Shown here: in pieces, positions 11,292-63,398 of the stretch
How positions within the stretch are numbered: position 1 is the first letter of the stretch
Layout: each line of letters opens with the position of its first letter
From: a bacterium
GTDB lineage: Bacteria; Pseudomonadota; Alphaproteobacteria; SP197
Length of the DNA stretch: 64,000 nt
Assembly (NCBI GenBank): GCA_028821455.1
Contig: JAPPGE010000022.1
Coordinates: 26,201-90,200, forward strand
Direction: 5' to 3'
Notes under the pieces: model-generated
What the model saw: only the letters and a program-made list of their open reading frames with translations
Databases searched by the model: none
What the model was told of the DNA's origin: nothing
Translations under genes and position numbers: made by a program

Positions 11292-11355
11292 GTCGTCAGT
11301 TCCCGTCCAGGATCAACGGGGCGGCAGCCTTGGATGACCACCGCCCCGGCAGACG

Positions 11356-12456: not shown

Positions 12457-12592
12457 GGTAGCCTCCTTATGATTGTCTTCGCATGTCTGTGTGGGTGCTG
12501 GGCCCAGGATTGCCGACCAGTATCGGTTTGGCAGACGACAGGGTTCAATTGTCCCATTTGGGACACACGGCAATCGGCGCTATGATTGTTCC

Positions 12593-13612: not shown

Positions 13613-13755
13613 CGGGCTTCCGGGGTTTTCCGGTACATCGCCCGACGGCGAGCCTCGACCCGAGCCGATCGAAGGACAACCGGCAGTCTGCGGCAAGGAT
13701 GACGTCAAGCGTCGCGATTGTACGATAGTCCGCGTGCCGTGAAGCTTCCCGGAGT

Positions 13756-18479: not shown

Positions 18480-20467
18480 AGGCGCTGCGCTTTCGGGTTC
18501 GCAACTATCGCAACATCGAGGACAGCGGCTGGGTGCCACTCGATCCGGTCACGGTCCTCGTCGGACGCAACGAGTCGGGAAAGACGTCCCTTCTGAAGGC
18601 ACTCAACAAGTTCAATCCGGGCACGGCGGAAACCTATGACGCCCAGCGCGAGTTTCCGCGTGACCGCTACACGCGCGACTACGTCCTTGCCGATTCCACG
18701 GGTGCGGAGTGGCCTGTCTGTTCCATCGAGTTCGAGATTCCGGAACAGCAGAAGAGCGATATCGCGACCCTGCTGGGCCCGGACCGGGCCGTACCCGAGA
18801 CGGTCATCGTCACGCGCCACTACGATGGCTCTCTCGGTTTTTCCTACATGCCGCAGATCGGAGCCAGACCGGCTCGGCCTGACCCTCTCATGGAGACCCT
18901 CGAGGATCTCGCGCTTTCGGACGACTCGTCGCGCCTGGCTGCATGGTCCAGCGCGTGGCACGACCGGTTCGCCGGACTTGATGACGTCACAAGCGCCACC
19001 GGCCGTGCCATGCTCTCAGAGATCGACGGCGAGATTTCCGGGCTCGATGATGAACGCCTCGGGGCTCTTGGCGCGATCGTCACCACGATGCTGCGGATGC
19101 CTTTCGGGAGCAGGGTGATCGATCATGTCAACGCCCTGGTGGAGCGCGAACTGCCGCGCCTCGTCTACTTCGAGAACTACGGCGTGCTCGACAGCGCCAT
19201 CTGGCTGCCGGAGATGTTGCGGGGCCTTGAACGCGAGGAACCGGAGCCGCGTTTTCGAACCGCGCTGGCGCTCTTTCGTCATGCGGGTCTTGATCCGCGG
19301 GACATCGCGGAACTCGCCGCCCCGGGCAGCAGGGCATCGGGCGAGGACATGCAACGCCAGATGGAGGAGCGGGCCATCCGGCTCAATGCCGCGTCGGTCG
19401 ACATCAGCCGTCGCTGTAGCGAGTTGTGGTCGCAGCGGCGCCATCGCATCCGCTATCACGTCGACGGAGACTATTTCCGCATCAGGGTTGCCGACGATTC
19501 GCTGGAGGATGTGGAGATCGAGCTGGAATCCCGCGGCAAGGGTTTCCAGTGGTTCCTCTCGTTCTTCCTCGTCTTTGCTGCGGAGTCCGAGGGCGGAATG
19601 GGCGATGCCATCGTTCTGCTGGACGAACCCGGTCTCAGCCTTCACCCGACGGCGCAACGCGAACTGCTCGTGTTCTTCGAGCATCTGTCGGAACAGAACC
19701 AGGTCATCTACACGACTCATTCACCCTTCCTTATCGACGGCGATCACCTCGACCGGGTGCGTCCGGTGTTCGAGGACGACACGGGCCATGCCCGCATCCT
19801 CAAGGGTTCGTGGCCCGCCCATCCGGAAACGGTGTTCGCACTCAAGGCGGCTGCCGGATATGCGATGTTCGATTCCCTTGCAGGACAGGATCGATCGCTG
19901 CTTGTCGAACAGGTCAGCGATGCTTGCTACCTGGAGGCGCTGTCGCGGCACTGTGGCCGGACCGGGAGGAGCGCGCTGGGCAATTCCGTCGACGTGGTGC
20001 CCTGCGGTGGCGCGGCCGTGTGCGGCTACCTGGCGTCACTTCTCATGGCCGAGAACCGTCGACCTCGTATCCTCTTTGACGGCACCGACGCTGCACGTCT
20101 TCGCCGGCACGGACTGGTGAGGGATCTTCTTGACGAGGGAGACAGCTCGATTGTTCTCCTCGACGAAGCCCTCGGCTGGTCCGGACATGATGTGTGCCTC
20201 GAGGACCTGTTTGGAGAGAGCATCATCCTCGAAGGCCTCGGGAATGCGACAGGGATCAGCCTGTCGCTTGCCGATGATGGACATCAGGCCGGTCTCGTCG
20301 GTCGGATCGAGAGCGCAGCGGCGGCGGCGAACATTGCGCTACCCCGCTCCTGGCGGCTGTCGACGGCCCTGGCGGTGACGTTGTCAGAGGCGTCCCTGCC
20401 GGATGACGTCCTCGATTCGGCCTCGCTTCTCTTCACCAAGCTTGCCGGTGACGGCCAGGGACGGTGA
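18476..20467 (+). CDS. OLD-family (overcoming lysogenization defect) ATPase-nuclease: N-terminal AAA_15/AAA_21 ABC-type ATPase plus C-terminal Toprim domain, 663 aa
   Basis: MKALRFRVRNYRNIEDSGWVPL, then Walker A VLVGRNESGKTSLL. IVLLDEPGLSLHPTAQRELL is the DEP/Walker B motif typical of OLD/YbjD. At the C-terminus, LVEQVSDACYLEAL (Toprim Glu), VVPCGG, and ILFDGTDAARL (DxD) fit Toprim_OLD. ATGA overlap with the upstream gene. Confidence 0.8.
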   Translation: MKALRFRVRNYRNIEDSGWVPLDPVTVLVGRNESGKTSLLKALNKFNPGTAETYDAQREFPRDRYTRDYVLADSTGAEWPVCSIEFEIPEQQKSDIATLLGPDRAVPETVIVTRHYDGSLGFSYMPQIGARPARPDPLMETLEDLALSDDSSRLAAWSSAWHDRFAGLDDVTSATGRAMLSEIDGEISGLDDERLGALGAIVTTMLRMPFGSRVIDHVNALVERELPRLVYFENYGVLDSAIWLPEMLRGLEREEPEPRFRTALALFRHAGLDPRDIAELAAPGSRASGEDMQRQMEERAIRLNAASVDISRRCSELWSQRRHRIRYHVDGDYFRIRVADDSLEDVEIELESRGKGFQWFLSFFLVFAAESEGGMGDAIVLLDEPGLSLHPTAQRELLVFFEHLSEQNQVIYTTHSPFLIDGDHLDRVRPVFEDDTGHARILKGSWPAHPETVFALKAAAGYAMFDSLAGQDRSLLVEQVSDACYLEALSRHCGRTGRSALGNSVDVVPCGGAAVCGYLASLLMAENRRPRILFDGTDAARLRRHGLVRDLLDEGDSSIVLLDEALGWSGHDVCLEDLFGESIILEGLGNATGISLSLADDGHQAGLVGRIESAAAAANIALPRSWRLSTALAVTLSEASLPDDVLDSASLLFTKLAGDGQGR

Positions 20468-21141
20468 ACGGCAGATTCGCCGTCTACTACACGCCTGCAA
20501 CCACGTCGGAACTGGCGCGATTCGCTACGGACTGGCTGGGCGGCAAGGCAGGAGCCGCCGCCGGCATTCCGGAAGACCTTCACCGCGACATCGTCCGCAT
20601 TCCCGCAGCGTACGGGTTCCATGCCACGCTGAAGGCCCCGTTTGCCCTCGCCCCGGAGGCCACCGGGGATGAACTCGCTACAGCTACCGCCGCCCTCGCC
20701 GCGGACTTTGCCGCCTTCAGGGCTCCGCCGCTGGATCTCGCCAATGTCGACGGGTTCCTTGCGCTCGTGCTTCGTGATCCATGTCCGGCAATGAACGACC
20801 TGGCCGCGGCCTGCGTGACGGAACTCGACCACTTCCGCGCGCCGTTGACCGACAGGGAAAGGGAACGCCGTGTCGCGCAAGGCCTGTCGGCGCGCCAGGA
20901 AGCGTTGCTCGACCGCTGGGGCTATCCGTTCGTCCTCGACGAATTCCTCTTTCACATGTCGCTGACCCGGCGTCTCGACGATGGTCTGCGCGATCGTATC
21001 GCCGGCTTCCTGGAACGCAGTATGGGCAATCTCATCGGGCGGCAGTGGTGCCTTGATTCCATCTCCCTCTTCCACCAGGCAACACGCGAAGAACCCTTCA
21101 CCATGAGGGCGCGCTTTCCACTCGGACATCTCGAAGGGTGA
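20464..21141 (+). CDS. 2H phosphoesterase superfamily protein (LigT / cyclic-phosphodiesterase-like, DUF1045-like), 225 aa
   Basis: Two H-x-[TS]-x motifs about 100 aa apart, GFHATLKAPF and FLFHMSLTRRL, are the 2H-family signature. The GTG start overlaps the OLD stop (GTGA). Confidence 0.75.
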   Translation: MNGRFAVYYTPATTSELARFATDWLGGKAGAAAGIPEDLHRDIVRIPAAYGFHATLKAPFALAPEATGDELATATAALAADFAAFRAPPLDLANVDGFLALVLRDPCPAMNDLAAACVTELDHFRAPLTDRERERRVAQGLSARQEALLDRWGYPFVLDEFLFHMSLTRRLDDGLRDRIAGFLERSMGNLIGRQWCLDSISLFHQATREEPFTMRARFPLGHLEG

Positions 21142-21170
21142 CGGATCCTCGACGTCCGGTCGCTCAGGGT

Positions 21171-21641
21171 TCAGCCTTCGATGAGCTTGCGGTAGCGGGT
21201 GAGCCACTGGGCGGCCAGTTCCGCCTCATCGGCGCCCAGGTCATAGGCTGGCGACACCACCATCTCTGCCGCGGTGATGGTGATGTCGAAGATTCCGCGC
21301 ATGCGGGGCTGCAGGTCCGGCCATTCGGTGAAGCGGGGCAGGAGGGCATCGAACTCCGGCGCACCACGTGCATGGTAAGAACCTCGGCCGCACACGCGCA
21401 CCGCCTTACGCCGGAACACATCGACAAAAGCGAGTTCGCAAGCCGGGTTGGCGGCGAGGTTGCGCTTCGTCCCCGGGGAGCGTAGGTCCGAAAAGACAAG
21501 CCGTACCGGGTCGAGCACGACGACGGTTCCCTTAGGTGAGACCGCGGGGGCGCCCTCCGGCGTCACCGTCGCCACCAGCGCCAACGTGTTTTCGCGGATG
21601 AGCATCGTCATTTCGGGCGTAAGCAAGGGGACAGTCTCCAT
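21171..21641 (-). CDS. Pyridoxamine 5'-phosphate oxidase-family FMN-binding protein
   Basis: METVPLLTPEMTMLIRENTLALVATVTPEGAPAVSPKG... is the PNPOx-like split barrel. cat at 21639-21641. Confidence 0.7.
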   Translation of the reverse strand: METVPLLTPEMTMLIRENTLALVATVTPEGAPAVSPKGTVVVLDPVRLVFSDLRSPGTKRNLAANPACELAFVDVFRRKAVRVCGRGSYHARGAPEFDALLPRFTEWPDLQPRMRGIFDITITAAEMVVSPAYDLGADEAELAAQWLTRYRKLIEG

Positions 21642-22100
21642 CGGGGCGTGGCGGGTCGGTTTCGGACCCGGACGGCAACCGATGTAGGCCCATGGTGCCC
21701 TGAGCGCAAGAACCGGCACGACCCTTGGGTGCACGGCCGCCAGATGTACAAGGAGCGCAACCAGATCGAGGTAAGCGGTGGAGTGGATTGCGCCAGGCGA
21801 AGCTCTGGAGAGGAGGAAGCGATGAGCCAGAGACCCTTCATCGCAGGCCAGCGGGTTCGACTCCCGCCCGGTAAAGGCGCAGTCCGCCGGCCGGGACCGA
21901 GTGTTGCGTGGCGCGTGGTAACGCGCGTCGCGAAGCGTACACAGGGGGTGGCAAAGCGACGAACATTGAGCCTCGAAACATCCAATGCTGGTGCCTTCAT
22001 CGTTCCATTAGTGGGGGCAGCACCGGAAGCGCCGCCAAGGCGAGGCGCGACGGACCGTCTCGGGGCGGATTTTGTCGATCAGATGATCCTTTGAGACGGT

Positions 22101-22129
22101 TTGCATTGACACCGAGAAAAGTCTATAAG
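22101..22129 (+). promoter_or_regulatory. Sigma70-like promoter candidate for the glutamate-synthase-like cluster
   Basis: TTGCAT, a 17-nt spacer, then TATAAG, in an AT-richer patch about 45 nt upstream of the ATG at 22172. Confidence 0.35.
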
Positions 22130-22171
22130 CATCAATAGCAGGAAACTTCGTTTCATCAGAGGAAACAGGCC

Positions 22172-23083
22172 ATGTGCGGAATTGCCGGTATCCTGTTGAA
22201 GAATGGGGACAGTGGCATCGATACCGGGACGGCGCTGATCGACATGCTCGACGGCTGTCAGCACCGGGGTCCGGACTCCACTGGGTTCGCCCTTTATGAG
22301 AGCGGCGAGGAAGGACAGCTGAAGCTGCGGTTCCATGTCGGCTCCGACAACGAGGCGGGCGACGCCGTTGCGGCCCTCAAGGCGGTCTTCGACGAACATG
22401 GCGCCGAGGTCATCGAGGAAGAGCGCATCGCCGGCAGCTATCGCGTCGTGGTGCGTTTCAGCGGCGACTTGCAGAAGTTCTCGTACGCCGTGGAACACGC
22501 CGCCAAGGTGGTGTCGATCGGCGAGAGCCTGGAGATCGTGAAGGACGTGGGCGGCGCCCATGATGTCGATGACACCTATGACGTCCATCTGTTCAGGGGC
22601 TCGCATGGCCTGGGACATGTGCGCCTTGCCACCGAATCGGATGTCAAGCCGGAGGCCTCGCACCCCTTCTGGGCGACCGGGTTTGCCGATGTCGCGATTG
22701 TCCACAACGGACAGATCACGAACTACTGGAAGATGCGCCGTCGTCTCGAGCGCCGCGGGTTCGCATTCGCGACCGACAACGACAGCGAACTCATTGCCGT
22801 CTATCTCGCCGACAAGATGAACCAGGGGATTCCCCTGAAGGACTCCCTGGCCTCGTCCATTGACGACATGGACGGGACATTCTCCTTCCTCGTCTCGACC
22901 CGCGACGAGATCGGCTACGCGAAGGACCGGCTTGCTGCCAAGCCGATGATCATGTTCGAGAACGACGACCTCATTGCCATTGCCTCTGAAGAGGTCTCGC
23001 TCAATCGCCTGTTCCCGGGCCGCGCGCTCGATACCCGTGAACCGCCTCCGGGAAGCTATAGAACATGGTCACGGTCGATCTGA
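22172..23083 (+). CDS. Class II (Ntn) glutamine amidotransferase subunit of a glutamate-synthase-like enzyme (GltB N-terminal domain homolog; GlxB/MgsA-like)
   Basis: MCGIAGILLKNG... The N-terminal nucleophile Cys after Met is the Ntn GATase_2 hallmark. Confidence 0.85.
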   Translation: MCGIAGILLKNGDSGIDTGTALIDMLDGCQHRGPDSTGFALYESGEEGQLKLRFHVGSDNEAGDAVAALKAVFDEHGAEVIEEERIAGSYRVVVRFSGDLQKFSYAVEHAAKVVSIGESLEIVKDVGGAHDVDDTYDVHLFRGSHGLGHVRLATESDVKPEASHPFWATGFADVAIVHNGQITNYWKMRRRLERRGFAFATDNDSELIAVYLADKMNQGIPLKDSLASSIDDMDGTFSFLVSTRDEIGYAKDRLAAKPMIMFENDDLIAIASEEVSLNRLFPGRALDTREPPPGSYRTWSRSI

Positions 23084-25038
23084 AGGATCTGTCGACCCGC
23101 GAAGCCAACGAGAGCATTCGCGAGGCGGCAGCACGGGGCGAGACCATCGAGGTTCTCAATCCCGACGCTCGCCACCACATCGGTGTCGGCGTCATCCACC
23201 CGGTTGACATCCATGTCCGCGGATCCGCCGGATACTTCTGCGCCGGACTGACCGACACTCCGCGCTTTCACATCGAACGCAACGCCGGCTGGGGGCTGGC
23301 AGACAACATGTACCGGGGATCCGTCGTCGTTGGCGGCAACGCCGGCGCCATAGCCGGGGTGGCGATCCGCGGCGCAGAGGTCGTGATCCGCGGCAACATG
23401 GGGTCACGGGCCGGACAGGTCATGAAGAAGGGGACGCTGCTGTGCTGCGGGAACGCCAACTTCATGGCCGGCTACATGATGTATGGCGGACGCATGATCA
23501 TTCTCGGCGAGTCAGGCGAGCGTCTCGGCGAGGACATGACGGGAGGCGAGATCTTCCTTGGCGGTGACCTGGTGTCACTGGGGTCCGATGCCATGGAGAC
23601 CGATATCGCGGAAGACGAGATCGATGACATCCGGGCCTTTCTCGACCGCTATGAGATTCCCTTCCGGGGCAGCCTCCGCAAGATCGTGAATGCCGGAAAG
23701 AAACTGCGCTACGGCACCCCGGAGCGACAGGTGCGCTCGATTCCCTACTTCAACTTTTCCGGCGACAGCGGCTACTGGAATCACAAGGTCCAGGAAGACG
23801 TCTACATCAAGTCCCAGATCGGCCGCTACCGGGTGAGGGGATACGGCGGCGCCCGCGAGTTGCCACACCTTTCCGACCTTGCCTTTGCCAGGGACATCAT
23901 TCCAGGTGCCCTCGGCGACGATCCGGTCTCGAGGGTCCGGATGCACACGCTGATCGGCGGCAAGAACGGCGCCAAACCCCTTGACCTGACGATGCCTGTC
24001 CTCATTGCTCCGATGAGCTATGGCGCTCTTTCCCGCTCCGCCAAGCAGGCGGTCGCCATCGCCTCGGGCATGGCGGGAATCGCCGAGAACACCGGGGAAG
24101 GCGGCATGAGCGACGCCCAGCGCGATGCGGCAGGTCAGCTCATATTCCAGATGCTTGGTGGCCGTCTGGGCTGGAACATCCACGACATGAACCGGGCGGA
24201 CGGCCTGGAGATCTACATTTCCCAGGGCGCAAAGCCGGGGTTCGGCGGTCAGCTCATGGCCAAGAAGGTGACGAAGGAACTGGCCGAGATCCGCGGCATC
24301 CCGGCCGGCATCGACCTTCGTTCGCCATCACGCCATCCCGACATCCTCGGCGCCGACGATCTCGTCATCAAGGTCGAGGAGTTGCGCGAGGCGACGGGCT
24401 ACCGTGTGCCGGTCAGCGTCAAGCTCGGGGCGGGTCGGATTCACGACGACATCAAGATTGCCGTCAAGGACGGCTTCGACTTCGTCGAGCTCGACGGCAT
24501 GCAGGGTTCGACCGGCGCCGGTGGCGCCGAGGTGATGGAGTATGTCGGCATCCCGACCATCTCTGCCATCTGCGAGGCGGAACGCGCCCTTGCGTCCATC
24601 GGCCGGCGCCAGGACATCGAGATTGTCCTCATGGGCGGGCTGAGAGACGGGGTCGATGCCGTCAAGGCTTTGTGCCTGGGGGCCGACGCCGTGGCGCTGG
24701 GGACCGCCGCCATCATTGCCGGGGGCTGCATCGCCTGCATGCAGTGTCATGTCGGCCAGTGCGTGACCGGTATTGCCACCCAGGATCCGGAGCACGAGAA
24801 GCGCTACAAGCCCGAGATCGAGGCGCAGCACATCTACACTTTCCTGGAAAGCGTGCGCTGGCAGATAGCGGCCGTCACACGGGGACTGGGATACGATGAC
24901 GTACGCGGCCCCTGCCGCGACGATCTTGTGGCTCTCACGCCCGAGGCGGCGGAGATCACCGGCCTTCCCCTCTGTCCCGAACGCCGGGATTCGGGGCTTC
25001 CCGAAATCAATGCGGCAATGGAACGGGCTCTTCGATGA
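23065..25038 (+). CDS. Fused GXGXG domain + FMN-binding glutamate synthase domain (GlxC-GlxD / MgsB-MgsC-like), 657 aa
   Basis: The N-terminus has GXGXG repeats (VVVGGNAGAIAGVAI..VIRGNMGSRAG). The C-terminus has the FMN-domain motifs AENTGEGGMSD and GIATQDPEHEKR, and CIACMQC for the 3Fe-4S cluster region. Confidence 0.85.
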   Translation: MVTVDLKDLSTREANESIREAAARGETIEVLNPDARHHIGVGVIHPVDIHVRGSAGYFCAGLTDTPRFHIERNAGWGLADNMYRGSVVVGGNAGAIAGVAIRGAEVVIRGNMGSRAGQVMKKGTLLCCGNANFMAGYMMYGGRMIILGESGERLGEDMTGGEIFLGGDLVSLGSDAMETDIAEDEIDDIRAFLDRYEIPFRGSLRKIVNAGKKLRYGTPERQVRSIPYFNFSGDSGYWNHKVQEDVYIKSQIGRYRVRGYGGARELPHLSDLAFARDIIPGALGDDPVSRVRMHTLIGGKNGAKPLDLTMPVLIAPMSYGALSRSAKQAVAIASGMAGIAENTGEGGMSDAQRDAAGQLIFQMLGGRLGWNIHDMNRADGLEIYISQGAKPGFGGQLMAKKVTKELAEIRGIPAGIDLRSPSRHPDILGADDLVIKVEELREATGYRVPVSVKLGAGRIHDDIKIAVKDGFDFVELDGMQGSTGAGGAEVMEYVGIPTISAICEAERALASIGRRQDIEIVLMGGLRDGVDAVKALCLGADAVALGTAAIIAGGCIACMQCHVGQCVTGIATQDPEHEKRYKPEIEAQHIYTFLESVRWQIAAVTRGLGYDDVRGPCRDDLVALTPEAAEITGLPLCPERRDSGLPEINAAMERALR

Positions 25039-27551
25039 CGGATGCCAATCTTCTGCCGGAGCAACTCGCGGACGACACCGCGGACCGGCATTTCGTGCCC
25101 GCTCCCTGCCAGATCGCCTGCCCGGTCGGCACGGACGCGCCATCCTACATCGCCCACATCTGGGAAGGCAGGTTCGCCGAGGCCTTCGAGGCCATCACGG
25201 CGACCAACCCGTTCAGTTCGATCTGCGGGCGCGTCTGCGACGCACCCTGCGAGCCGGCATGTCGGCGTACGGCAAGCGACGGCCCCGTGCAGATCCGCAA
25301 TCTCAAGCGCTTTGTCATGGACAAGCTCGGAGCCGAGTGGGTGCCGCCGGCGGCGCACGTCACCCGTGACGAGAGTATCGGCATCGTCGGGGCCGGGCCG
25401 GCCGGACTGGTGGCGGCCCACGACCTTGCCGTCGCCGGATTCAGGGTCGATGTCTATGAGATGACCGACCGTCCCGGCGGCATGATGATCTGGGGCATTC
25501 CGGCGTTTCGCCTGCCTGCCGGCACCCTGAACGAGGACATGGAGAGGCTGGAGGCCCGCTGTCCCGGACTCACCATCCACACGAATGTTGCGCTGGGCCG
25601 GGACATCACGCTCGCCGACCTCAAGGAACGCCACGATGCGGTGGGGCTCACCATCGGTTCCTGGTGGGGCAAGACCATGGGGATCTCCGGCGAGGCCGAC
25701 GACCGCGTGATCGACGGCGTCGAGTTCCTGCGCCGGGTCAACGCCGGAGAACGCCCGGAAATGCCGGCGAAAGTCGTCGTCGTTGGCGGCGGCGATGTCG
25801 CCATGGATGCCTGCCGAGCCGCCCTGCGCCTTCCGGGATGCGAGGAGGTCACGGTCATCTACCGGCGCGGCCCGGAGGATATCCCGGCGCGAAAGATCGA
25901 ACTCGAGGGCGCCATCGAGGAAGGTATCGAGTTCATCTACAACACGCAGCAGGTCGGGGTCCTTGCCGACAACGAGGATCGCTTGAGACTGCGCTGTGTG
26001 CGCACCACGGCCGGCGAACCTGATGCAGATGGCCGTCGTCGGCCCGTCACGGTCGAGGGATCCGAGCACGACATCATGTGTGGCATGGTCATTGCCGCGG
26101 TCGGTCAGTACGGCGCCTGCGACGATCCCGCCACCCGGGACCTCATGTCCGGCGATCGCGTGCGGACCGACTGGGAGACCATGCGGACCGATGATCCGCA
26201 GGTCTTTGCCGCCGGTGACGGAGCCTTCGGGGGCTCCACCATCGTCATGGCCATGAGCCATGGCCAGCGGCTGGCCTACTACATCAAGGCGTGGCTCGAT
26301 GGCATCGACGATCCCGTTCCCTATCGTACGCCGTGGCGGACACGGCGTGTGCCGGTGGCCCAGGATCTCAAGTGGGAACTCCTGGGCCTGCACCATCCGC
26401 CGTTCCACGGCGTCGGCGACAATCCGGTCGCATTCCCGGAAATCGAGTCGACCTACACCTGGGAGGAGGCGCGCAACGAGGCGGCGCGATGCTATCGCTG
26501 CGACGCCGAGACCGGCTCGGCCGATTACTCTGTCGCCAACCGGGAGGACATCTTCCTGATGGCGCGGATGAAGCGCGAGGACACGTCGCGCCAGGCCGCC
26601 ATGCTGACCAAGCGCCTGCGGTCGCGCGACAACCCGTTTCCTCAAGATCGGCCGGCCACCGTCGACGATCTGGTGTTCCTGCCGGCCAATCTGTCGAGAC
26701 TGGTGATCGACCCCTATCGCGAGGCCTGCAAGGTAGCGACGGACCTGGGATCCGGACGCATGGAGGTGGCGCAGCCTTTCTTCGTGACCGGCTTTGACAA
26801 CGCACCGGCGGAAGTGAAGCGAGGGGTCGGACAGGGAATATCGCAAGCGGCGGCAGGCTACATCGGCATGCAGCCGATTGCCGACGATGTGGCGTGGTTG
26901 CAGCTGGTGGTGGAGGGGCAGATTGCGTCGCGGGAGGACGCCGCGGGTCTCATTCATGTCATCGGTCCCCGCTTCGAAGCGCCAACGAGGATCCGGCGGC
27001 TTCGCGAGGACCAGATCCTCGGCCTTGCCGTCTCCCACGGGAGCGCTCTCGAGGATGCCATCGGGTTTGCCCTTGATCAGGACCTCGACGTCCTGCTGGT
27101 CAACGGCAACATTGCCACCGGGCGCGACTGGCCGGAACTCACCGGCGCCCCTGACCTCACGCTCATGCGCGACACCATTGCCTGCCTGCGTCGGCTCAAC
27201 ATGGAAGAGGAGATCGACATCCTCTGGTTCGGCGGTCTGCGTTCCGGCACGGATGCCGCCAAGCTCATCGCCATGGGCGCGAAGTCGCTGGTCATGGGCA
27301 TGACCGTGGCCCTGGCGGCCGGGGCCGAGTTTGACGAGTCCCATCGGCTTCGGTTTGCCCCCGATTTTACGGCCGATGAGTGCTCCCGGGCGGTTGCCAA
27401 CATCCTGAAATCCGCGGTGGGCGAGGCGTCGATGATGGCCCGTTGCACCGGCAAGACCAATCTCCACAACTTGGAACCCGAGGACCTGCGCGCCCTCACG
27501 CTCGCCACGGCAGAGGCCACCGGACTGGTTCTCGCCGGACACACGTACTGA
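25035..27551 (+). CDS. GltD-like NAD(P)H-dependent flavoprotein (4Fe-4S + FAD/NAD binding) fused to a C-terminal TIM-barrel-like domain, 838 aa
   Basis: CPVGTDAPSYI...ICGRVCDAPCEPAC are the Fe-S cysteines. IGIVGAGPAGLVAAHDLA and VVVVGGGDVAMD are the two Rossmann motifs of GltD/DPD-PreT. The C-terminal roughly 350 aa parallel the GltB central/FMN barrel. ATGA overlap with the upstream gene. Confidence 0.85.
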   Translation: MTDANLLPEQLADDTADRHFVPAPCQIACPVGTDAPSYIAHIWEGRFAEAFEAITATNPFSSICGRVCDAPCEPACRRTASDGPVQIRNLKRFVMDKLGAEWVPPAAHVTRDESIGIVGAGPAGLVAAHDLAVAGFRVDVYEMTDRPGGMMIWGIPAFRLPAGTLNEDMERLEARCPGLTIHTNVALGRDITLADLKERHDAVGLTIGSWWGKTMGISGEADDRVIDGVEFLRRVNAGERPEMPAKVVVVGGGDVAMDACRAALRLPGCEEVTVIYRRGPEDIPARKIELEGAIEEGIEFIYNTQQVGVLADNEDRLRLRCVRTTAGEPDADGRRRPVTVEGSEHDIMCGMVIAAVGQYGACDDPATRDLMSGDRVRTDWETMRTDDPQVFAAGDGAFGGSTIVMAMSHGQRLAYYIKAWLDGIDDPVPYRTPWRTRRVPVAQDLKWELLGLHHPPFHGVGDNPVAFPEIESTYTWEEARNEAARCYRCDAETGSADYSVANREDIFLMARMKREDTSRQAAMLTKRLRSRDNPFPQDRPATVDDLVFLPANLSRLVIDPYREACKVATDLGSGRMEVAQPFFVTGFDNAPAEVKRGVGQGISQAAAGYIGMQPIADDVAWLQLVVEGQIASREDAAGLIHVIGPRFEAPTRIRRLREDQILGLAVSHGSALEDAIGFALDQDLDVLLVNGNIATGRDWPELTGAPDLTLMRDTIACLRRLNMEEEIDILWFGGLRSGTDAAKLIAMGAKSLVMGMTVALAAGAEFDESHRLRFAPDFTADECSRAVANILKSAVGEASMMARCTGKTNLHNLEPEDLRALTLATAEATGLVLAGHTY

Positions 27552-27562
27552 AGCGACCGTAT

Positions 27563-28096
27563 TCAGGTTCTCGTGGCGGGTGTCAGATCGATGACCCTGG
27601 AGTCGTATCCGCAGGCCGAAAGGAAGCGCAGGAGATCGCGCGGATGAAGCGCCGTCGTCCGGTTGTTGACGAGCGGATGCAGGTTGACGAGGTCCGCTTC
27701 CATGATGGCGCGATCGATGTAGACACCGATGTCCTCGCCTGTGTCATTGATGAGCGCAAGGGGCGTCACGGCCCCGGGCTCGACCCCGAGAATGTCACGC
27801 ACCCTTTCGGGGCGGGCGAAGCTCAGGCGTGCCGAGCCGATGAGTCCGGCGAGGGACTTGAGGTCGAGTTCGCGTGATTCCTCGACCACGGTGAGCCACA
27901 GCCGCGCCTTCTTGTCCTTGAAGAACAGTGTCTTGCAGTGGATTCCGGGAAGGCTGCCGCGCAACGCGCGGTTGTCGGCCACGGTATGGACGGGTTCATG
28001 TTCGTGGGTCGTGCACGGGATGCCGAGCTCCTTGAGCCTGGCGATCAGGTCGCCGGGCGTTGCCCTGCCCGGCATCGTCGTCGTCGGTCGGTTCAT
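27563..28096 (-). CDS. YbaK/ProX-family aminoacyl-tRNA deacylase
   Basis: HEPVHTVADN...GIHCKTLFFKDKKARLWLTVV matches the YbaK/EbsC deacylase domain. The internal Met is preferred. The track ORF starts at a TTG at 28183. Confidence 0.7.
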   Translation of the reverse strand: MNRPTTTMPGRATPGDLIARLKELGIPCTTHEHEPVHTVADNRALRGSLPGIHCKTLFFKDKKARLWLTVVEESRELDLKSLAGLIGSARLSFARPERVRDILGVEPGAVTPLALINDTGEDIGVYIDRAIMEADLVNLHPLVNNRTTALHPRDLLRFLSACGYDSRVIDLTPATRT

Positions 28097-28228
28097 GGGG
28101 CATGTGGTCCGGTCTGGTGGTGAATCAGGCCCCGGCTTTCCGGCGGTCGATAAATGTCCTACACTTCCGGGGACCTGATGCAAGGGATCCTGAGCCCTTG
28201 TTGATCACTTCTGGGAGGATCCAGGGAG

Positions 28229-29677
28229 ATGACTGATCAACTAGCTTCGCTTACCGTCATCTTCACGGAGTTCTACTACTGGGTCACGGTCGTCATCATG
28301 TTCCTGATCCACGTAGGGTTCTGTGTCTATGAGGTCGGCGCGTCGCGCCGCAAGAATCTTCAACACACGCTGATGAAGAACACGATGCTGATCCCGCTGG
28401 TCACCATCACGTTCTTCTATTTCGGATGGTGGATCTACTTCGCCTTCCCCCACTTCCCGCTGATGGGCGGATTTCTCGATGCGCCCTTCGCCGTGCCGTG
28501 GTCCGAACTCATGGGCACCCATATGGGCGGTGCGGTCACCGTCCAGGCTGCGAGCCTGACGTCGGATGACACCATGTTCTGGGCCCGCATCAACGGGGTC
28601 TTCTGGGCAGCCTTCCTGCTGTTCTCATGGACCACCGCGTCCATCGTCTCCGGTGCCGTCATCGAACGCATCAAGACACAGGCGTTCCTGCTCGTGGTAG
28701 TTCTTGTCGGTTCGGTGACATGGATCATCGATGCCGCCTGGGGCTGGAGCTGGAATGGCTGGATGGTGCAGCTGTGGGGCTATCACGATGCCTACGCATC
28801 CTCGGTGGTGCACGGCATTGCCGGTGGCTCGGCGCTGGGCATCCTGGTCGTGCTGGGTCCCAGACTCGGCAAGTTCGCCGCCGATGGGACACCGCGCAAC
28901 ATACCCCAGAACAATCCCTGGCTCGTCACGGTCGGGCTGTTCCTGATCTATACCGGGTTCTGGGGATTCTATGCCGCGTGCAACATTCCCATCATCGACT
29001 ACACCGCTGATGTCATGGGAGCCGAGGGAGCAGCCTTCTTCACGGCGACCAACATCTACCTGACACCGACATCGCTTTCCGCCATTACCTTCAACTTCCT
29101 GATGTCGCTTTCGGGCGGTCTCCTGGCAGGCTATCTGGTCTCGAGGGGTCAGCCGTTCTGGAGCTATTCGGGAGGTCTTGCAGGCGTCATCTGCGCCTCT
29201 GCTGGCAACGATCTCTATCATCCGATCGAGTCAATGGTCATCGCCATGGTCGGTGTGTGGATCGCCTACAAGATGCACCACTGGGTGGAGAGGAGGTTCA
29301 AGATCGACGATGCGGTGGGCGCCGTGGCCGTGCACGGTTACGCCGGTTTCGCCGGGACGGTGATCGCGGGCTTCATGCTCTGGGGTTATCCCTCCAACGT
29401 CGCCTACGAAGCGACGGGCTGGTTCGGCAATACCGACGGTGTGGCATCCATCAATCCGCTCGGCCAGTTCCTGGGCGCCGTGCTGATGTTCTGGGGTCTT
29501 GGCTTCCTGCCCTGCTGGGTTCTGGCCAAGGTTCTCAATGGCATGGGCTGGTTGCGTGTGCCGCGCGAAGTCGAACTTGCCGGTCTCGATACCCATGACT
29601 ACGGGGATGCCTTCCCGTACCACGCCTATCGTGACACGGCGATGGAAGACGTCGACCGCGATCTCGCAAAGAGCTGA
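28229..29677 (+). CDS. amt: Ammonium/methylammonium transporter (Amt family), 482 aa
   Basis: 11 TM helices with Amt signature residues (twin His, HGYAGFAGT). No glnK is adjacent. Confidence 0.9.
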   Translation: MTDQLASLTVIFTEFYYWVTVVIMFLIHVGFCVYEVGASRRKNLQHTLMKNTMLIPLVTITFFYFGWWIYFAFPHFPLMGGFLDAPFAVPWSELMGTHMGGAVTVQAASLTSDDTMFWARINGVFWAAFLLFSWTTASIVSGAVIERIKTQAFLLVVVLVGSVTWIIDAAWGWSWNGWMVQLWGYHDAYASSVVHGIAGGSALGILVVLGPRLGKFAADGTPRNIPQNNPWLVTVGLFLIYTGFWGFYAACNIPIIDYTADVMGAEGAAFFTATNIYLTPTSLSAITFNFLMSLSGGLLAGYLVSRGQPFWSYSGGLAGVICASAGNDLYHPIESMVIAMVGVWIAYKMHHWVERRFKIDDAVGAVAVHGYAGFAGTVIAGFMLWGYPSNVAYEATGWFGNTDGVASINPLGQFLGAVLMFWGLGFLPCWVLAKVLNGMGWLRVPREVELAGLDTHDYGDAFPYHAYRDTAMEDVDRDLAKS

Positions 29678-29704
29678 GCGGTCCCGGAAAGGAGACAGGA
29701 AACC

Positions 29705-29938
29705 ATGTCTACCAACGTTGAAAGCTGGTCCGATGTTGCGTCTCTGGGCGCCATCTATCCCTTCCCGGGAATCGAATGGCTCCTCGTCCTGGCTGGCGTC
29801 GCCATCTGGGTGATCTGGCACGTCTGGCAGATCCGTTCGGAGAATTCCGAGTACGATGCGGCGGTCCAACACTACCAGGACGTCGGCATGGACAAGGCCC
29901 TCGATCATCGAGGGCGCCATGACGCCATGCTCGACTGA
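29705..29938 (+). CDS. Small single-TM membrane protein (77 aa), hypothetical
   Basis: GIEWLLVLAGVAIWVIWHVWQI is the TM helix. 27 nt downstream of amt, followed by hairpins. Confidence 0.4.
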   Translation: MSTNVESWSDVASLGAIYPFPGIEWLLVLAGVAIWVIWHVWQIRSENSEYDAAVQHYQDVGMDKALDHRGRHDAMLD

Positions 29939-29955
29939 CGGGCAGTAACCATCTC

Positions 29956-30023
29956 CAGGGGGCGGTGACCCACCGCCCCCTGTTTCACGCGATCGGCGGA
30001 TGGCGCCATGCCGTCCGCCGATC
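29956..30023. terminator. Two consecutive GC-rich hairpins between convergent genes (bidirectional terminator candidate)
   Basis: CAGGGGGCGGTG-acc-CACCGCCCCCTG is a perfect 12-bp stem followed by TTT. Then GATCGGCGGA-n13-TCCGCCGATC. Confidence 0.5.
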
Positions 30024-30223
30024 GCCGTTTGGAATGGGCAGACGGGCGGTGGGAACCGGAAACGCGGATTACGGGCAGGCTTCCACGCCGCCAGGAGATG
30101 GGCCGGGCAGACGTCGCGCACCGGCGTTTCTCCGCTTGCCCTGATTCGTGCGGATTGCGCCACACGATATGCGGCGCAAAGGGGTGTTCGATCAGCGCTC
30201 GCAAGCAGCAGATGTGGGGACGC

Positions 30224-30640
30224 TCACAGGCGCACCTGCCAGTGGGGCTCCACTTCGGTCCACTCGTCATCCGAGTCTTCAGGCCATGGCGGCATGGTCA
30301 CCGCGAAGGCCGAGAGCGCCGTGCCGTGACCGGCGCGGAACTGGAAGGACGTGCCAAGCGGAATTGTCAGGCAGAGACCGGGTGTCAGCGCGACAACGTC
30401 CTCTTGCTTGTCCGTGCGGCGCCACATCTCGCCGCGGCCCTCGAGGATGTACCAGATTTCTTCCACACTCCGGTGGCGTCCGGCGCGCGACACCCTGCCC
30501 GGCGCCAGACGGAAGTGTGCGGCACTGCCGCCGGCAAGGGAGCAGAGGATGCGGACCTCCGCACCATCGGGCGCGAGCGTGTCGGCTTCGTCCGGCAGCT
30601 GCCGGGTGGCGAGAGGCCGTTCCTGAAAGTCAGCGGTCAT
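30224..30640 (-). CDS. Cupin-domain protein
   Basis: The HFRLAPGRVSRAGRHRSVEEIWYILEGRG region is cupin motif 1. Confidence 0.6.
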   Translation of the reverse strand: MTADFQERPLATRQLPDEADTLAPDGAEVRILCSLAGGSAAHFRLAPGRVSRAGRHRSVEEIWYILEGRGEMWRRTDKQEDVVALTPGLCLTIPLGTSFQFRAGHGTALSAFAVTMPPWPEDSDDEWTEVEPHWQVRL

Positions 30641-31058: not shown

Positions 31059-31089
31059 TCCTTGTCCTTTCTTGATCTAGGGTGGTTTC

Positions 31090-31190
31090 AGTCACTCACG
31101 GGGAGCTCCTAGGGAGCTGAGAGATGTCGATAGGCATCGACCCGTTGAACCTGATCCGGATCATGCCGGCGTAGGGATTGAGGCGACAGT
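31090..31190 (+). ncRNA. TPP (thiamine pyrophosphate) riboswitch, THI element
   Basis: CTGAGA...ACCCGTTGAACCTGATCCGGATCATGCCGGCGTAGGGA matches the THI-box consensus directly upstream of the thiamine ABC transporter. Confidence 0.85.
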
Positions 31191-31242
31191 CTTTTCTCAC
31201 CAGGAAGACACCCTCCCCGGCCCCGGCGCCGAAGGAGGAACC

Positions 31243-32238
31243 ATGCCAAGAACGGTGACCTTTCTATCGGCCGCCCTGCTGACCATCCTGTCAGCGCGCG
31301 CCGAAACGCTTGATGTCTACACATATGAGTCCTTTGTCAGCGAGTGGGGCCCGGGACCGCAGATCGAGGAGGCCTTCGAGGCCCGCTGCGCGTGCACCAT
31401 CCGCTGGACGGCGGTCGATGACGCCGCAATCCTGCTGTCGAGACTGCGTCTCGAGGGGTCGGGCGGCGACGCGGACGTGGTGCTCGGGCTCGACACCAAC
31501 CTGATGGCCGAAACCAGCGATCTCGGCCTTGTCCGCCGGCATGGCATTGTCGGCCTGGAGTTCGATCTCCCCGTTCCATGGGACGATCCCGTCTTCGTTC
31601 CCTTCGACTACGGGTATTTTGCCGTGATCTACGATGACCAGGCGCTGCCTCAGCCACCGGCATCACTCGATGACCTGGTGTCGGGTGGCAACGGCGCCGA
31701 TCTCATCATCCAGGATCCCCGCACCAGCACCCCGGGGCTGGGTCTCATGCTGTGGATGAAGGCCGTCTACGGCGATTCCGCGGCCGATGCCTGGCGCAGG
31801 CTGTCGTCACGTGTTCTCACGGTCACCGCGGGATGGAGCGAGGCCTACGGGCTGTTCCTGGAGGGCGAGGCGCCGATGGTGCTGAGCTACACGACCTCTC
31901 CGGCCTATCACCAGCTCGTCGAGGGCGAGACGAGGTACCGCGCCGCCATGTTCGAGGAAGGCCACTACATGCAGATCGAGGTGGCGGCCATGGTCGAGGG
32001 CACGGACCAGGAAGACCTTGCCCGCGATTTTCTGCGCTTCATTGCCACGCCGGGGTTCCAGGGCGCCATCCCGACGGGTAACTGGATGTACCCGGTGATC
32101 GATCTCGGTGATGACCTTCCGGACGTCTTCCGCGAACTGCCGGCGCCGGCCGTGTCACTGCTGCTGCCGCCGGAAGAGGCCGGCGCCATGCGCAGACAGT
32201 GGATCGACGAGTGGCTGGAGGCGGCCATCGGAGAATGA
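31243..32238 (+). CDS. tbpA: Thiamine ABC transporter periplasmic binding protein
   Basis: Signal peptide MPRTVTFLSAALLTILSARA. Synteny with thiP and thiQ. TbpA/ThiB family. Confidence 0.9.
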   Translation: MPRTVTFLSAALLTILSARAETLDVYTYESFVSEWGPGPQIEEAFEARCACTIRWTAVDDAAILLSRLRLEGSGGDADVVLGLDTNLMAETSDLGLVRRHGIVGLEFDLPVPWDDPVFVPFDYGYFAVIYDDQALPQPPASLDDLVSGGNGADLIIQDPRTSTPGLGLMLWMKAVYGDSAADAWRRLSSRVLTVTAGWSEAYGLFLEGEAPMVLSYTTSPAYHQLVEGETRYRAAMFEEGHYMQIEVAAMVEGTDQEDLARDFLRFIATPGFQGAIPTGNWMYPVIDLGDDLPDVFRELPAPAVSLLLPPEEAGAMRRQWIDEWLEAAIGE

Positions 32239-63389: not shown

Positions 63390-63398
63390 CGCCGCGCC

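Follow-up and report, generated by a model that had tools for sequence, protein, structure and literature searches.

A glutamate-synthase-like gene cluster of apparent Glx/Mgs type encoding a GltD-type flavoprotein fused to a degenerate FMN-type barrel

Results

Organization of the locus

Three overlapping genes, here called G1, G2, and G3, lie on the forward strand of the window, which is the whole 64,000-nucleotide stretch of DNA that was analysed (Table 1). G1 and G2 overlap by 19 nt, and G2 and G3 share an ATGA. The initial annotation had described three overlapping reading frames, and its coordinates, lengths, and both overlaps proved exact; likewise, the MCGI start that it gave for G1 and the AENTGEGG and GIATQDPE motifs that it gave for G2 are present in the translations. 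The region directly upstream of G1 is the sole intergenic part conserved between the window and the orthologous loci L002, L003, and L005. It contains a candidate sigma-70 promoter that was read by inspection and was not called by a consensus scan for promoters, so that we infer a promoter at this position.

Table 1. Features of the G1-G2-G3 locus and its immediate surroundings (positions in the window).
Feature	Position	Strand	Details and basis
Conserved upstream region and G1 5' UTR	22050..22171	+	Candidate sigma-70 promoter inside
Candidate sigma-70 promoter	TTGCAT 22101-22106, 17-nt spacer, TATAAG 22124-22129	+	Sequence inspection
G1, class-II (Ntn) amidotransferase subunit, MgsA/GlxB-like	22172..23083	+	303 aa; Pfam GATase_6/7
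G2, fusion of GXGXG beta-helix (MgsB-like) and catalytic FMN/Fe-S barrel (MgsC-like)	23065..25038	+	657 aa; Pfam
G2 GXGXG beta-helix domain	23167..23580 (aa 35-172; Pfam match 35-166)	+	PF01493 E=3e-13; FwdC-like matches
G2 FMN barrel core	23968..24894 (aa 302-610)	+	PF01645 Glu_synthase E=3e-94
G2 Fe-S cysteine motif C555-x2-C558-x2-C561-x4-C566	24727..24762	+	Alignment
G3, fusion of GltD-type NADPH Fe-S flavoprotein and degenerate second FMN-type barrel	25035..27551	+	838 aa
G3 GltD-like module	25101..26324 (aa 23-430)	+	Fer4_20 E=7e-25 and Pyr_redox_2 E=3e-24, together aa 23-410
G3 C486-x2-C489, Cys pair that completes the two [4Fe-4S] clusters	26490..26501	+	Invariant RCxRCD
G3 barrel-2, degenerate Mgs/Glx-type FMN barrel duplicate	26652..27548 (aa ~540-838)	+	AF2, Foldseek, BLAST, alignment
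tRNA_edit domain gene, YbaK/ProX-like	27563..28183	-	PF04073 E=3e-29; between G3 and amt
Divergent Amt-family ammonium or methylammonium transporter gene	28229..29677	+	PF00909 E=4e-50

The tRNA_edit gene that adjoins G3 is kept in loci L001 to L005, and its membership of the cluster is uncertain. A tRNA_edit gene likewise lies 3' of the GS-III gene in L083. The amt gene, which had been placed about 700 bp downstream, starts 678 bp past the end of G3; its product scores below the NCBIfam cut-offs. Amt orthologues with 61-68% identity occur near G1-G3 in eight further loci, seven of which also contain gmaS, and Amt is likely a functional partner of G1-G3. As had been noted for the window end, soxB (62118-63389) and the beginning of soxA were found there, about 35 kb from G1-G3; they are only 51% identical to the linked soxB-like genes of orthologous loci.

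Domains and motifs of G1 and G2

NCBI names G1 a "class II glutamine amidotransferase". Its Cys2 nucleophile and its HVRLAT, HNG, and D-S-E motifs show no variation among 62 orthologues, and its Pfam type is GATase_6/7 rather than GATase_2. The G2 barrel carries the motifs MSYGALS, NTGEGG, QGAKPGxGGQ, SPSRHPD, DGxQGxTGA, and GGxxDGxD, which vary little or not at all among 66 orthologues, and the four cysteines of its Fe-S motif, which aligns with both the 3Fe-4S region of GltB and the Cys motifs of MgsC-type proteins, are retained in 65-66 of the 66. Full-length identity of G2 to Mgs/Glx-type FMN subunits is 40-44%, compared to 36% over a partial alignment with E. coli GltB.

G3 joins a GltD-type module to a degenerate barrel

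The complete architecture of G3 is kept in 80 genome loci, at 50-94% identity. The six cysteines of its Fer4_20 match (C25, C29, C64, C68, C72, and C76), the FAD site (GAGPAG), and the NADPH site (GGGDVAMD and YRR) are invariant in 43 sequences. The remaining pair, C486 and C489, sits after the flavin domains and is thus permuted relative to GltD; a weak Fer4_20 match (profile positions 5-48) covers this region. 9bov_A, 8oh5_C, and 9n5u_A also have this "EA.RC..C" segment behind their flavin domains, and the module matched 9bov_A (E=2e-92), NfnA 9n5u (9e-89), 8oh5_C (7e-79), and GltD 2vdc_G (2e-60) in the PDB.

The second domain of G3, barrel-2, was predicted by AF2 to be a TIM barrel (pLDDT 91, pTM 0.85), and its best Foldseek matches were FMN-dependent TIM barrels (E down to 6e-13). 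BLAST aligned it over its full length with MgsC-type proteins (E=1e-25 to 1e-27), and Pfam gave a weak Glu_synthase/FMN_dh match at aa 697-764. In the alignment, barrel-2 has lost the MSxGALS, GEGG, QGAKPGxGG, and DGxxGxTGA motifs and the Cys cluster and has retained GGLRSGTDAAK..GA and N- and C-terminal Mgs-type motifs; the residues of its FMN-phosphate motif (G733, G734, R736, S737, G738, T739, D740, K743, and G748) are invariant. Judged by these losses and matches, barrel-2 is a catalytically degenerate duplicate of an Mgs/Glx-type FMN barrel, and by sequence comparison both it and G2 are nearest to Mgs/Glx-type FMN subunits rather than to GltB.

The initial annotation had likened barrel-2 to the central domain of GltB. 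The barrel fold is borne out by AF2 and Foldseek, but the homology is to the FMN barrel. Glu_syn_central (PF04898) matched none of G1, G2, and G3, and relaxing the threshold to E<=10 brought up no match in the C-terminal half of G3 either; hhalign against E. coli GltB favoured the FMN domain (E=0.0016) over the central domain (E=0.083); and the nearest relatives are MgsC-type; together these results do not support barrel-2 as a counterpart of the central domain. A profile of the C-terminal half of G3 matches E. coli GltB 974-1105. Because barrel-2 is unrelated to the GltB central domain, the claim that the three genes re-create every domain of NADPH-GOGAT is wrong. Domain content does support the statement that an NAD(P)H-dependent GltD module, absent from Glx/Mgs clusters, is here joined to an Ntn amidotransferase, a GXGXG domain, and an FMN barrel. 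The domain order, which had been called new relative to Glx/Mgs, is so only for G3, because G1-G2 follow the normal mgsA-mgsB-mgsC order of GATase, GXGXG, and FMN (PMC6237917).

Orthologous loci and linkage to gmaS

G1-G2-G3 are syntenic in about 80 species of four phyla, and the tight coupling of the three genes is conserved across the orthologous loci. Natural fusions join G2 to G3 (P0126, 1486 aa) and G2 to barrel-2 (P0131, 1031 aa). Barrel-2 is also kept in variants that have no GltD module (L083 and L085).

A GmaS orthologue adjoins the cluster 3' of G3 in 23 of 66 loci, whereas the 64 kb of the window contain no gmaS, so that the suggested search for gmaS or glnT nearby was negative in the window and positive in these relatives. 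The linked protein, of the type III GS family, scores 661 bits against TIGR03105 (cut-off 470), matches the RhGmaS structure 7cql in phmmer (E=1e-187), and keeps Trp300 (PMC7948447). In a G3 tree, almost every deep branch includes gmaS-linked loci, and by this tree the linkage seems ancestral. It is lost in the sub-clade of the window, where amt, urease accessory genes, or larA are the neighbours instead. Compared to this sub-clade, gmaS-linked copies show conservative group-specific substitutions only.

Locus L087 contains a purU-like gene, gmaS, G1-G3, XRE-cupin and AraC/DJ-1 regulator genes, and soxBDAG-like genes, with no mgsABC in the 22 kb examined. This layout is that of the mgsABC-gmaS/mgdABCD island (PMC6237917, PMC5023235), with G1-G3 replacing mgsABC. 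Sox-like (mgdABCD-type) genes adjoin eight orthologous loci, and also L083 and L087, and PuuR-like regulator genes adjoin 17. The GmaS, PuuR-like, and soxBDAG-like neighbours of the orthologues fit the earlier suggestion of reductive amination or N-methyl-amino-acid metabolism rather than housekeeping GOGAT.

Discussion

We favour the interpretation, at a probability of about one half, that G1, G2, and G3 form a single complex of the Glx/Mgs (N-methylglutamate-synthase-type) branch that has gained an NADPH-dependent electron-input subunit. In such a complex, the N-terminal Cys of G1 would hydrolyse a gamma-glutamyl amide to glutamate and an amine; in the ancestral setting this substrate would be gamma-glutamylmethylamide made by GmaS, and glutamine could also serve. 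The amine would pass to the G2 barrel and condense with 2-oxoglutarate, and the imine would be reduced by FMNH2 to N-methylglutamate (or glutamate), with electrons flowing from NADPH through the FAD and two [4Fe-4S] clusters of G3 to the four-Cys cluster and then the FMN of G2. Barrel-2, as a dead copy of the catalytic barrel, would likely be the pseudo-heterodimer partner of G2, carrying a conserved N-terminal motif now missing from G2 and tethering the reductase.

NMG synthase has been proposed to move the methylamide group to 2-oxoglutarate, with a reductant not yet identified (PMC6237917). The NADPH module of G3 may be this electron donor so far missing from the methylamine pathway. We put forward more tentatively that the operon acts as an NADPH-driven "methyl-GOGAT" (gamma-glutamylmethylamide + 2-oxoglutarate + NADPH -> glutamate + N-methylglutamate), in which G3 would be the electron donor of NMG synthase. 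The classical EC 2.1.1.21 reaction, which starts from glutamate and methylamine, is redox-neutral overall. Moreover, the variants L083 and L085 and canonical MgsABC all lack GltD, which implies that an external reductant may not be needed for an Mgs-type reaction.

What also counts against an Mgs-type reading is the window itself, which is without gmaS in its 64 kb and belongs to a sub-clade linked to amt, urease accessory genes, or larA; a canonical mgsABC may also lie elsewhere in the genomes that carry the cluster. The absence of gmaS linkage from this sub-clade and the adjacent amt keep a glutamine-using GOGAT alive as a rival, although we consider it rather unlikely. G1-G3 would then be a glutamine-dependent NADPH-GOGAT built from Glx-type parts, which with Amt and glutamine synthetase would provide another route from glutamine and 2-oxoglutarate to glutamate in ammonium assimilation, or even the sole one in certain lineages. 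The complete NADPH-GOGAT cofactor chain of G1-G3, the 2-oxoglutarate and FMN loop motifs that G2 retains in common with GltB, the amt genes adjoining the cluster in the window and 12 other loci, the urease accessory genes at L086, and the P-II, amt, and gdh genes at the L085 variant are consistent with this role. By contrast, the patchy spread over four phyla looks accessory rather than housekeeping, and the ligase encoded alongside is orthologous to GmaS, not GlnA, and lacks the ammonium-binding features of GS (PMC7948447). Likewise, at L087 and L083 the enzyme sits inside a complete NMG-type island where the stretch examined shows no second candidate for an NMG synthase, and gmaS-linked and unlinked copies show no sequence shift.

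The GmaS orthologue and its neighbours also bear on the choice of amine. RhGmaS takes ethylamine, propylamine, hydroxylamine, and ammonium besides methylamine (PMC7948447), and the linked GS-III could be a broad-range gamma-glutamyl-amide synthetase whose product, derived from ethylamine or a small amine from osmolyte breakdown, for example, would lead to another N-alkyl glutamate. The 17 loci with PuuR-like regulators, which are typical of gamma-glutamylation pathways, the second GATase and GS-like gene pair flanking the cluster at L017, and the MttB-family methyltransferase gene 5' of the L085 variant would suit such a substrate; nevertheless, we regard it as improbable, given that the linked ligase is so close to a characterised methylamine enzyme (E=1e-187) and that soxBDAG-like and purU-like genes point to release of C1 units from an N-methyl group. 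Least probable, in our estimation, is that G3 does not feed the FMN of G2 and either works in the oxidative direction, for example from glutamate or N-methylglutamate to NAD(P)+, or is a separate enzyme, for instance with barrel-2 as a second FMN site. The invariant FMN-phosphate motif of barrel-2 is unexpected in a purely structural domain, and barrel-2 does occur without GltD, but it has no substrate-loop motif and no Fe-S Cys, and the G2-G3 fusion and the intact Fe-S chain suit the GOGAT-type direction. GltD-type modules, such as GltD and NfnB, are normally electron inputs that oxidise NAD(P)H, which argues further against this arrangement.

If the methyl-GOGAT reading is true, Mgs/Glx enzymes would be genuine reductive amidotransferases that receive their electrons through Fe-S clusters, and this form would serve numerous marine and aquatic bacteria of four phyla to shift methylamine nitrogen straight into glutamate. 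A duplicated FMN barrel could then decay into a cofactor-poor scaffold, which is a possible origin of the GltB central domain.

Comparison with known systems

G1-G3 and GltB/GltD (EC 1.4.1.13) have in common an Ntn amidotransferase, a GXGXG beta-helix, and an FMN barrel that bears Fe-S cysteines and 2-oxoglutarate loop motifs. The amidotransferase, with catalytic Cys1 at the N terminus of GltB, is a separate protein in G1. The loop motifs of the barrel are invariant in G2, yet the beta-helix precedes the barrel and the cluster motif has four cysteines, whereas in GltB the beta-helix follows and the cluster has three; moreover, the central domain PF04898 is missing from G1-G3. G3 has the FAD, the NADPH site, and the eight invariant cysteines for two [4Fe-4S] clusters of GltD, but its first Cys pair is permuted and a dead barrel is fused to it. 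G2 scored 160 bits against the GltB equivalog NF008730 (cut-off 1047), and G3 scored 261 and 184 bits against the GltD equivalogs TIGR01318 (cut-off 483) and TIGR01317 (cut-off 448), all far short of these curated NCBIfam cut-offs.

Archaeal-type split GOGAT (GltB1/2/3) resembles G1-G2 in its split arrangement of amidotransferase, beta-helix, and FMN barrel and in having no central domain, and the barrel of one such protein (P0266, with GXGXG, Fer4 dicluster, and FMN) is 44% identical to that of G2. Electrons there enter through a small N-terminal 2x[4Fe-4S] ferredoxin domain in the FMN subunit; G2 has no Fer4 family match in Pfam, and a complete NADPH flavoprotein is present instead as a separate polypeptide. 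Permuted GltD-like modules of large Fe-S flavoenzymes (9bov_A "molybdopterin oxidoreductase", 8oh5_C, and NfnA 9n5u_A; NCBIfam PRK12771 and PRK12814) match G3 aa 23-498 best (E=2e-92 to 7e-79), but their fusion partners are molybdopterin or other redox domains and not a degenerate glutamate-synthase-type barrel. DPD (PreT/PreA and the fused mammalian enzyme) also has a GltD-like NADPH module followed by an FMN-type TIM barrel, both within a single electron-transfer chain (E=3e-27 over aa 22-422 of G3). However, the DPD barrel is catalytic, of DHO_dh type, and followed by two more [4Fe-4S] clusters, whereas barrel-2 is of Glu_synthase type without catalytic loops; its Glu_synthase and FMN_dh rather than DHO_dh matches and its want of a dicluster motif set it apart from a PreA-type barrel.

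MgsABC/GlxBCD (EC 2.1.1.21) has the same module order as G1-G2, and the Mgs subunits of M. extorquens (300, 225, and 442 aa; PMC6237917) match G1-G2 in size, with the separate MgsB and MgsC forming one protein in G2. At part of the orthologous loci, G1-G3 are followed by gmaS and flanked by mgdABCD-like genes, although no gmaS lies close to the cluster in the window. MgsABC/GlxBCD consists of three subunits without a dedicated reductase, and none of the described Mgs/Glx clusters contains a GltD-type NADPH/FAD/2x[4Fe-4S] reductase; G3 adds such a reductase, which in this sub-family is fused to the degenerate duplicate barrel as a fourth module.

Gene organisation and domain content

The three same-strand reading frames reported in the initial annotation, G1, G2 and G3, were borne out at their exact coordinates (see table), and the G2 motifs that it quoted are present in the G2 sequence. 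The end of G1 overlaps the start of G2 by 19 nt, and the G2/G3 junction is an ATGA overlap. G1 starts with MCGI and matches the class-II amidotransferase families GATase_6/7. G2 contains a GXGXG beta-helix (aa 35-166) followed by a glutamate-synthase FMN barrel (aa 302-610, E=3e-94). G3 carries a GltD-type module (Fer4_20 plus Pyr_redox_2, aa 23-410), whose closest solved structures are 9bov_A, NfnA 9n5u, 8oh5_C, NfnB 4ylf_B and GltD 2vdc_G, and its C-terminal half (aa ~540-838) is a second barrel, here called barrel-2. Public names for the three proteins are generic ('class II glutamine amidotransferase', 'glutamate synthase-related protein' and 'FAD-dependent oxidoreductase', respectively). 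Base composition gave no sign of foreign origin: G+C is 62-68% across the window, and the GC3 of G1-G3 (0.80-0.82) is that of the adjoining genes.

Features of the window and of related loci (nt coordinates within the window or the named locus)
Location	Coordinates	Strand	Feature	Size or score
Window	9261-14874		OYE-type FMN + Pyr_redox_2 flavoprotein, SBP_bac_8 binding protein, GcvT-family aminomethyltransferase	flavoprotein 676 aa
Window	18476-20467	+	AAA_15/AAA_21 ATPase	663 aa
Window	20464-21141	+	DUF1045 putative phosphonate-metabolism gene
Window	21858-22074	+	RF02005 match (group II intron D1-D4-6)	106 bits, E=5e-29
Window	22172-23083	+	G1	303 aa
Window	23065-25038	+	G2	657 aa
Window	25035-27551	+	G3	838 aa
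Window	26728-26730		G3 C565
Window	27445-27447		G3 C804
Window	27563-28183	-	YbaK/ProX-type tRNA_edit gene
Window	31089-31195	+	TPP riboswitch (RF00059)	79 bits
Window	31243-34548		thiB-type thiamine ABC transporter operon
Window	62118-64000		soxB and start of soxA, at window end
L017	633-5887		second amidotransferase set
L083	12977-13426		tRNA_edit gene
L087	19767-21662	-	group II intron reverse transcriptase/maturase gene

The cofactor chain of G2 and G3

Eight cysteines are invariant in G3. Six are N-terminal (C25, C29, C64, C68, C72 and C76), and the remaining pair, C486 and C489 in RCYRCD, lies on a segment with a weak Fer4_20 match (profile positions 5-48). Because this Fer4_20-like segment comes after the flavin domains, as does the 'EA.RC..C' segment of 9bov_A, 8oh5_C and 9n5u_A, the GltD module of G3 is by sequence a member of the permuted PRK12771/PRK12814 sub-family. 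Its FAD motif (GAGPAG), NADPH motif (GGGDVAMD) and YRR motif are all invariant. The G2 motif C555-x2-C558-x2-C561-x4-C566 is kept in 65-66 of the 66 orthologues and aligns at the position of the 3Fe-4S cysteines of GltB. By analogy with GltBD, electrons would pass from NADPH through FAD and two [4Fe-4S] clusters to the G2 cluster and on to FMN.

Barrel-2 resembles a duplicated FMN barrel

The initial annotation likened barrel-2 to the central domain of GltB, an assignment ruled out by Pfam, hmmsearch, BLAST, alignment and hhalign. Barrel-2 gave no match to PF04898 (the GltB central domain) even at E<=10, and the sole match of its profile in E. coli GltB (residues 974-1105) falls within the FMN domain; likewise, hhalign favoured the FMN region of GltB (E=0.0016) over the central one (E=0.083). 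Over its full length, barrel-2 shows ~26% identity (E=1e-25 to 1e-27) to stand-alone FMN subunits of the N-methylglutamate synthase (Mgs/Glx) type, one of which is named 'methylamine-glutamate N-methyltransferase subunit C' in IMG. Modelled alone from a 59-sequence alignment, barrel-2 forms a TIM barrel (pLDDT 91, pTM 0.85) that comes closest in structure to FMN-dependent barrels, namely those of flavocytochrome b2, type II IPP isomerase, glycolate oxidase and IMPDH. In the full-length AF2 model of G3, the linker and the Fe-S segments were modelled with low confidence, which makes it unusable for the geometry of the permuted cluster or for domain packing.

In the alignment, barrel-2 is missing a ~55-residue block with the MSxGALS and GEGG motifs. 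Also gone are the substrate loops QGAKPGxGG and SPxRHxD, as well as DGxxGxTGA and the cysteines of the Fe-S motif. Barrel-2 retains the FMN-phosphate motif GGLRSGTDAAK..GA (invariant in 43 sequences), the C-terminal Mgs-type tail GKTNLHNLEPEDLRALT and the N-terminal Mgs-type motif DDLVFLPANLSRLVIDPYREAC, which is the part of the domain with the highest conservation and is lost from G2. Since catalytic motifs are lost while these three Mgs-type features are kept, we read barrel-2 as a catalytically dead duplicate of the catalytic barrel, with ancestral features divided between the two paralogues. Two barrel-2 cysteines are shared with MgsC-type proteins despite the loss of the Fe-S motif: C565 in YREAC is invariant, and C804 in ARCTGKT is kept in at least 90% of sequences.

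Only 460 clusters (50% identity) among 1.8 billion representatives have the barrel-2 domain, which makes it rare, and it takes four forms. Besides the fusion to GltD seen in the window, there are one G2+G3 fusion of 1486 aa (P0126), a GltD-less fusion of G2 and barrel-2 (P0131, 1031 aa) and stand-alone proteins of ~360 aa (P0175 and P0181).

Distribution and gene neighbours

Among the best 120 of more than 4000 database matches, the G3 architecture is retained at full length with 63-94% identity. A scan of one genome per species found 80 loci with G3 (49-94% identity) in Alpha- and Gammaproteobacteria, Planctomycetota, Latescibacterota and Akkermansiaceae; the proteobacterial carriers include Rhodospirillales, Hyphomicrobiales (among them the cultured Aestuariivirga litoralis), Arenicellales, Woeseia and Pseudomonadales. 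Wherever the extent of the contig permits, the genes are adjacent in the order G1-G2-G3, and the tight junctions are preserved as well.

Recurrent partners were sought by clustering all flanking ORFs and re-scoring by tblastn, and spurious antisense families produced by ORF-based analysis of high-GC DNA were removed by hand. Three conserved-looking ORF clusters (15, 18 and 44) were treated as artefacts because they overlap gmaS in other frames. A type III glutamine synthetase (GS) gene is present, mostly 125-300 bp past G3 and on the same strand, in 23 of the 66 loci having at least 1.6 kb of downstream flank. A PuuR-like XRE-cupin regulator recurs in 17 loci, a divergent Amt in 13 (7 of them also with the GS gene), soxB/soxA-like genes in 8 and a LarA-like gene in 7; the ORF clustering by itself gave six loci for the LarA-like gene. 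The linked GS exceeds the TIGR03105 equivalog cut-off (661 vs 470 bits). Against the Rhodovulum GmaS crystal structure (7cql) it scores E=1e-187, and it retains Trp300, which in GmaS stands in place of the GS flap glutamate (PMC7948447). For these reasons, the gene is by sequence an orthologue of gmaS, which encodes gamma-glutamylmethylamide synthetase.

At locus L087, the purU-like and gmaS genes lie on one strand and G1-G2-G3 on the opposite one, followed by two regulators (XRE-cupin and AraC/DJ-1 type) and soxB-D-A-G-like genes. The mgsABC-gmaS/mgdABCD islands of Methylobacterium and Methyloversatilis are arranged in this way (PMC6237917, PMC5023235), with mgsABC where L087 has G1-G3. Locus L083 is arranged like L087 but has the GltD-less fusion, and at L085 the stand-alone barrel-2 form adjoins a GS-III gene, an MttB-family gene, amt, P-II and gdh.

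Other neighbours were observed at single loci or small groups of loci. The LarA gene (Lar_N plus LarA_C; lactate racemase family) lies directly 3' of G3 on the same strand (~105-390 bp) in L010, L013, L019, L020, L053 and L068, all lacking gmaS; a link to 2-oxoglutarate or 2-hydroxyglutarate chemistry is possible. Upstream of and divergent from G1-G3, L017 has a second set comprising another amidotransferase of class II (311 aa), a GS-like protein of 490 aa (291 bits, under the TIGR03105 cut-off), a small ORF and Amt, apparently a second module for gamma-glutamyl amides; the same GS-like gene recurs in L033 (496 aa).

The window's copy belongs to a sub-clade without linked gmaS

In a simple neighbour-joining tree of 69 G3 proteins with midpoint rooting, gmaS-linked loci occupy nearly all deep branches, and the window falls in a derived sub-clade without gmaS linkage (L001-L013, L019-L023 and L051). 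Its closest relatives have the same tRNA_edit and amt genes, the next closest group has urease accessory genes, and others have larA. No gmaS was found within the 64 kb of the window. The window Amt and that of gmaS-linked operons fall in one orthologue group (61-68% identity). We looked for a shift in specificity between gmaS-linked and unlinked orthologues and found just four group-specific substitutions (S295T in G1, V257I in G2, I27V and M243L in G3), so there is no sequence evidence for a substrate shift. The two groups of enzymes look isofunctional, and the substrate, whichever it is, is probably common to the family.

The tRNA_edit gene directly follows G3 in the window and in its four nearest relatives, and another follows the GS-III gene of the GltD-less variant cluster in L083; this deacylase-like protein recurs beside the enzyme.

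Upstream region and other features of the window

Matches to a sigma-54/NtrC-type promoter upstream of G1 were at chance level, and none was convincing. The Rfam search gave no leader RNA or riboswitch 5' of either G1 or amt, and returned instead a full-length RF02005 match well over the gathering score of 49, in the intergenic region just 5' of G1 and ending 98 bp before its start. Intron D5-D6 had no match in the window at the gathering threshold and none at E<=1 in 21000-30500. Because D5-D6 has no match and G1 occupies the expected place of the reverse-transcriptase ORF, the element looks like the remnant of an intron. L002-L007 lack it, and alignment of L002, L003 and L005 to the window revealed common sequence only in the last ~125 nt before G1. 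In L087, a complete maturase gene (RVT_1, Intron_maturas2, HNH) just past the soxBDAG-like genes is a second group II element beside the cluster; the co-occurrence may be chance.

The TPP riboswitch upstream of the thiamine transporter operon is kept in L002-L005. The AAA ATPase gene, with weak PtuA and retron-effector-like matches, may be a defence-type insertion; it overlaps the start of the DUF1045 gene, and L086 likewise has DUF1045 upstream of the cluster. The flavoprotein, SBP_bac_8, GcvT-family and sox genes of the window are other genes related to the metabolism of amines and N-methyl compounds, and the window soxB shares just 51% identity with the sox-like genes flanking G1-G3 elsewhere.

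Proposed function and alternatives

We give about an even chance (probability roughly 0.5) to the interpretation that G1-G3 constitute an amidotransferase and reductive aminase of the Mgs/Glx type that has its own built-in NADPH reductase. G1 would hydrolyse a gamma-glutamyl amide, the freed amine and 2-oxoglutarate would condense in G2, and the imine would be reduced by FMNH2 with electrons delivered by G3; barrel-2 would dock G3 onto G2 and retain an ancestral interface motif. Together with GmaS, G1-G3 would complete a methylamine version of the GS/GOGAT cycle. Counting against this interpretation, the classical EC 2.1.1.21 reaction does not depend on an external reductant, and GltD is lacking both from some variants of the family and from canonical MgsABC. 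The main rival, that G1-G3 are a true glutamine-dependent GOGAT, gains support from the linkage of the window's sub-clade to amt and urease accessory genes; however, the patchy distribution and the linkage to GmaS and the N-methylglutamate island argue against it, and we consider it appreciably less probable. It is unlikely that the enzyme acts on another alkylamide substrate, and more improbable still that G3 works oxidatively or serves as a second site.

The N-methylglutamate pathway is the chief methylamine route of non-methylotrophic marine bacteria. About 23% of surface-ocean genomes carry its gmaS gene (PMC7948447). A methylamine cycle like GS/GOGAT has already been proposed for N-methylglutamate synthase, the middle enzyme of the pathway, which has never been biochemically resolved and whose reductant, or redox partner, is listed as unknown (PMC6237917). 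Here, a complete NADPH-to-Fe-S reductase shares an operon with an Mgs-type core and is fused to that core in some genomes, so the question of the redox partner becomes directly testable. If G1-G3 are instead a glutamine-dependent GOGAT, they would be a third bacterial architecture for a central nitrogen-assimilation enzyme, missed by current annotation. On either reading, gene-based ocean-metagenome estimates of methylamine or ammonium assimilation would need to include the G1-G3 form.

Comparison with known systems

Two candidate equivalents were rejected: dimethylamine monooxygenase DmmABC, which has unrelated subunits of 42, 36 and 24 kDa and a GcvT-type DmmD, and the SAR11 glxBCD/glnT cluster, which is of the ordinary Glx type with no GltD fusion. 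Our literature searches turned up no account of an Mgs/Glx enzyme with a GltD module or of the duplicated barrel. G1-G3 differ from GltBD in lacking the central domain, in domain order and in scoring far under the equivalog cut-offs; from the archaeal split form in lacking its ferredoxin domain; and from DPD in lacking its DHO_dh barrel. Relative to the three-subunit Mgs/Glx enzymes, G1-G3 add an extra barrel and a reductase.
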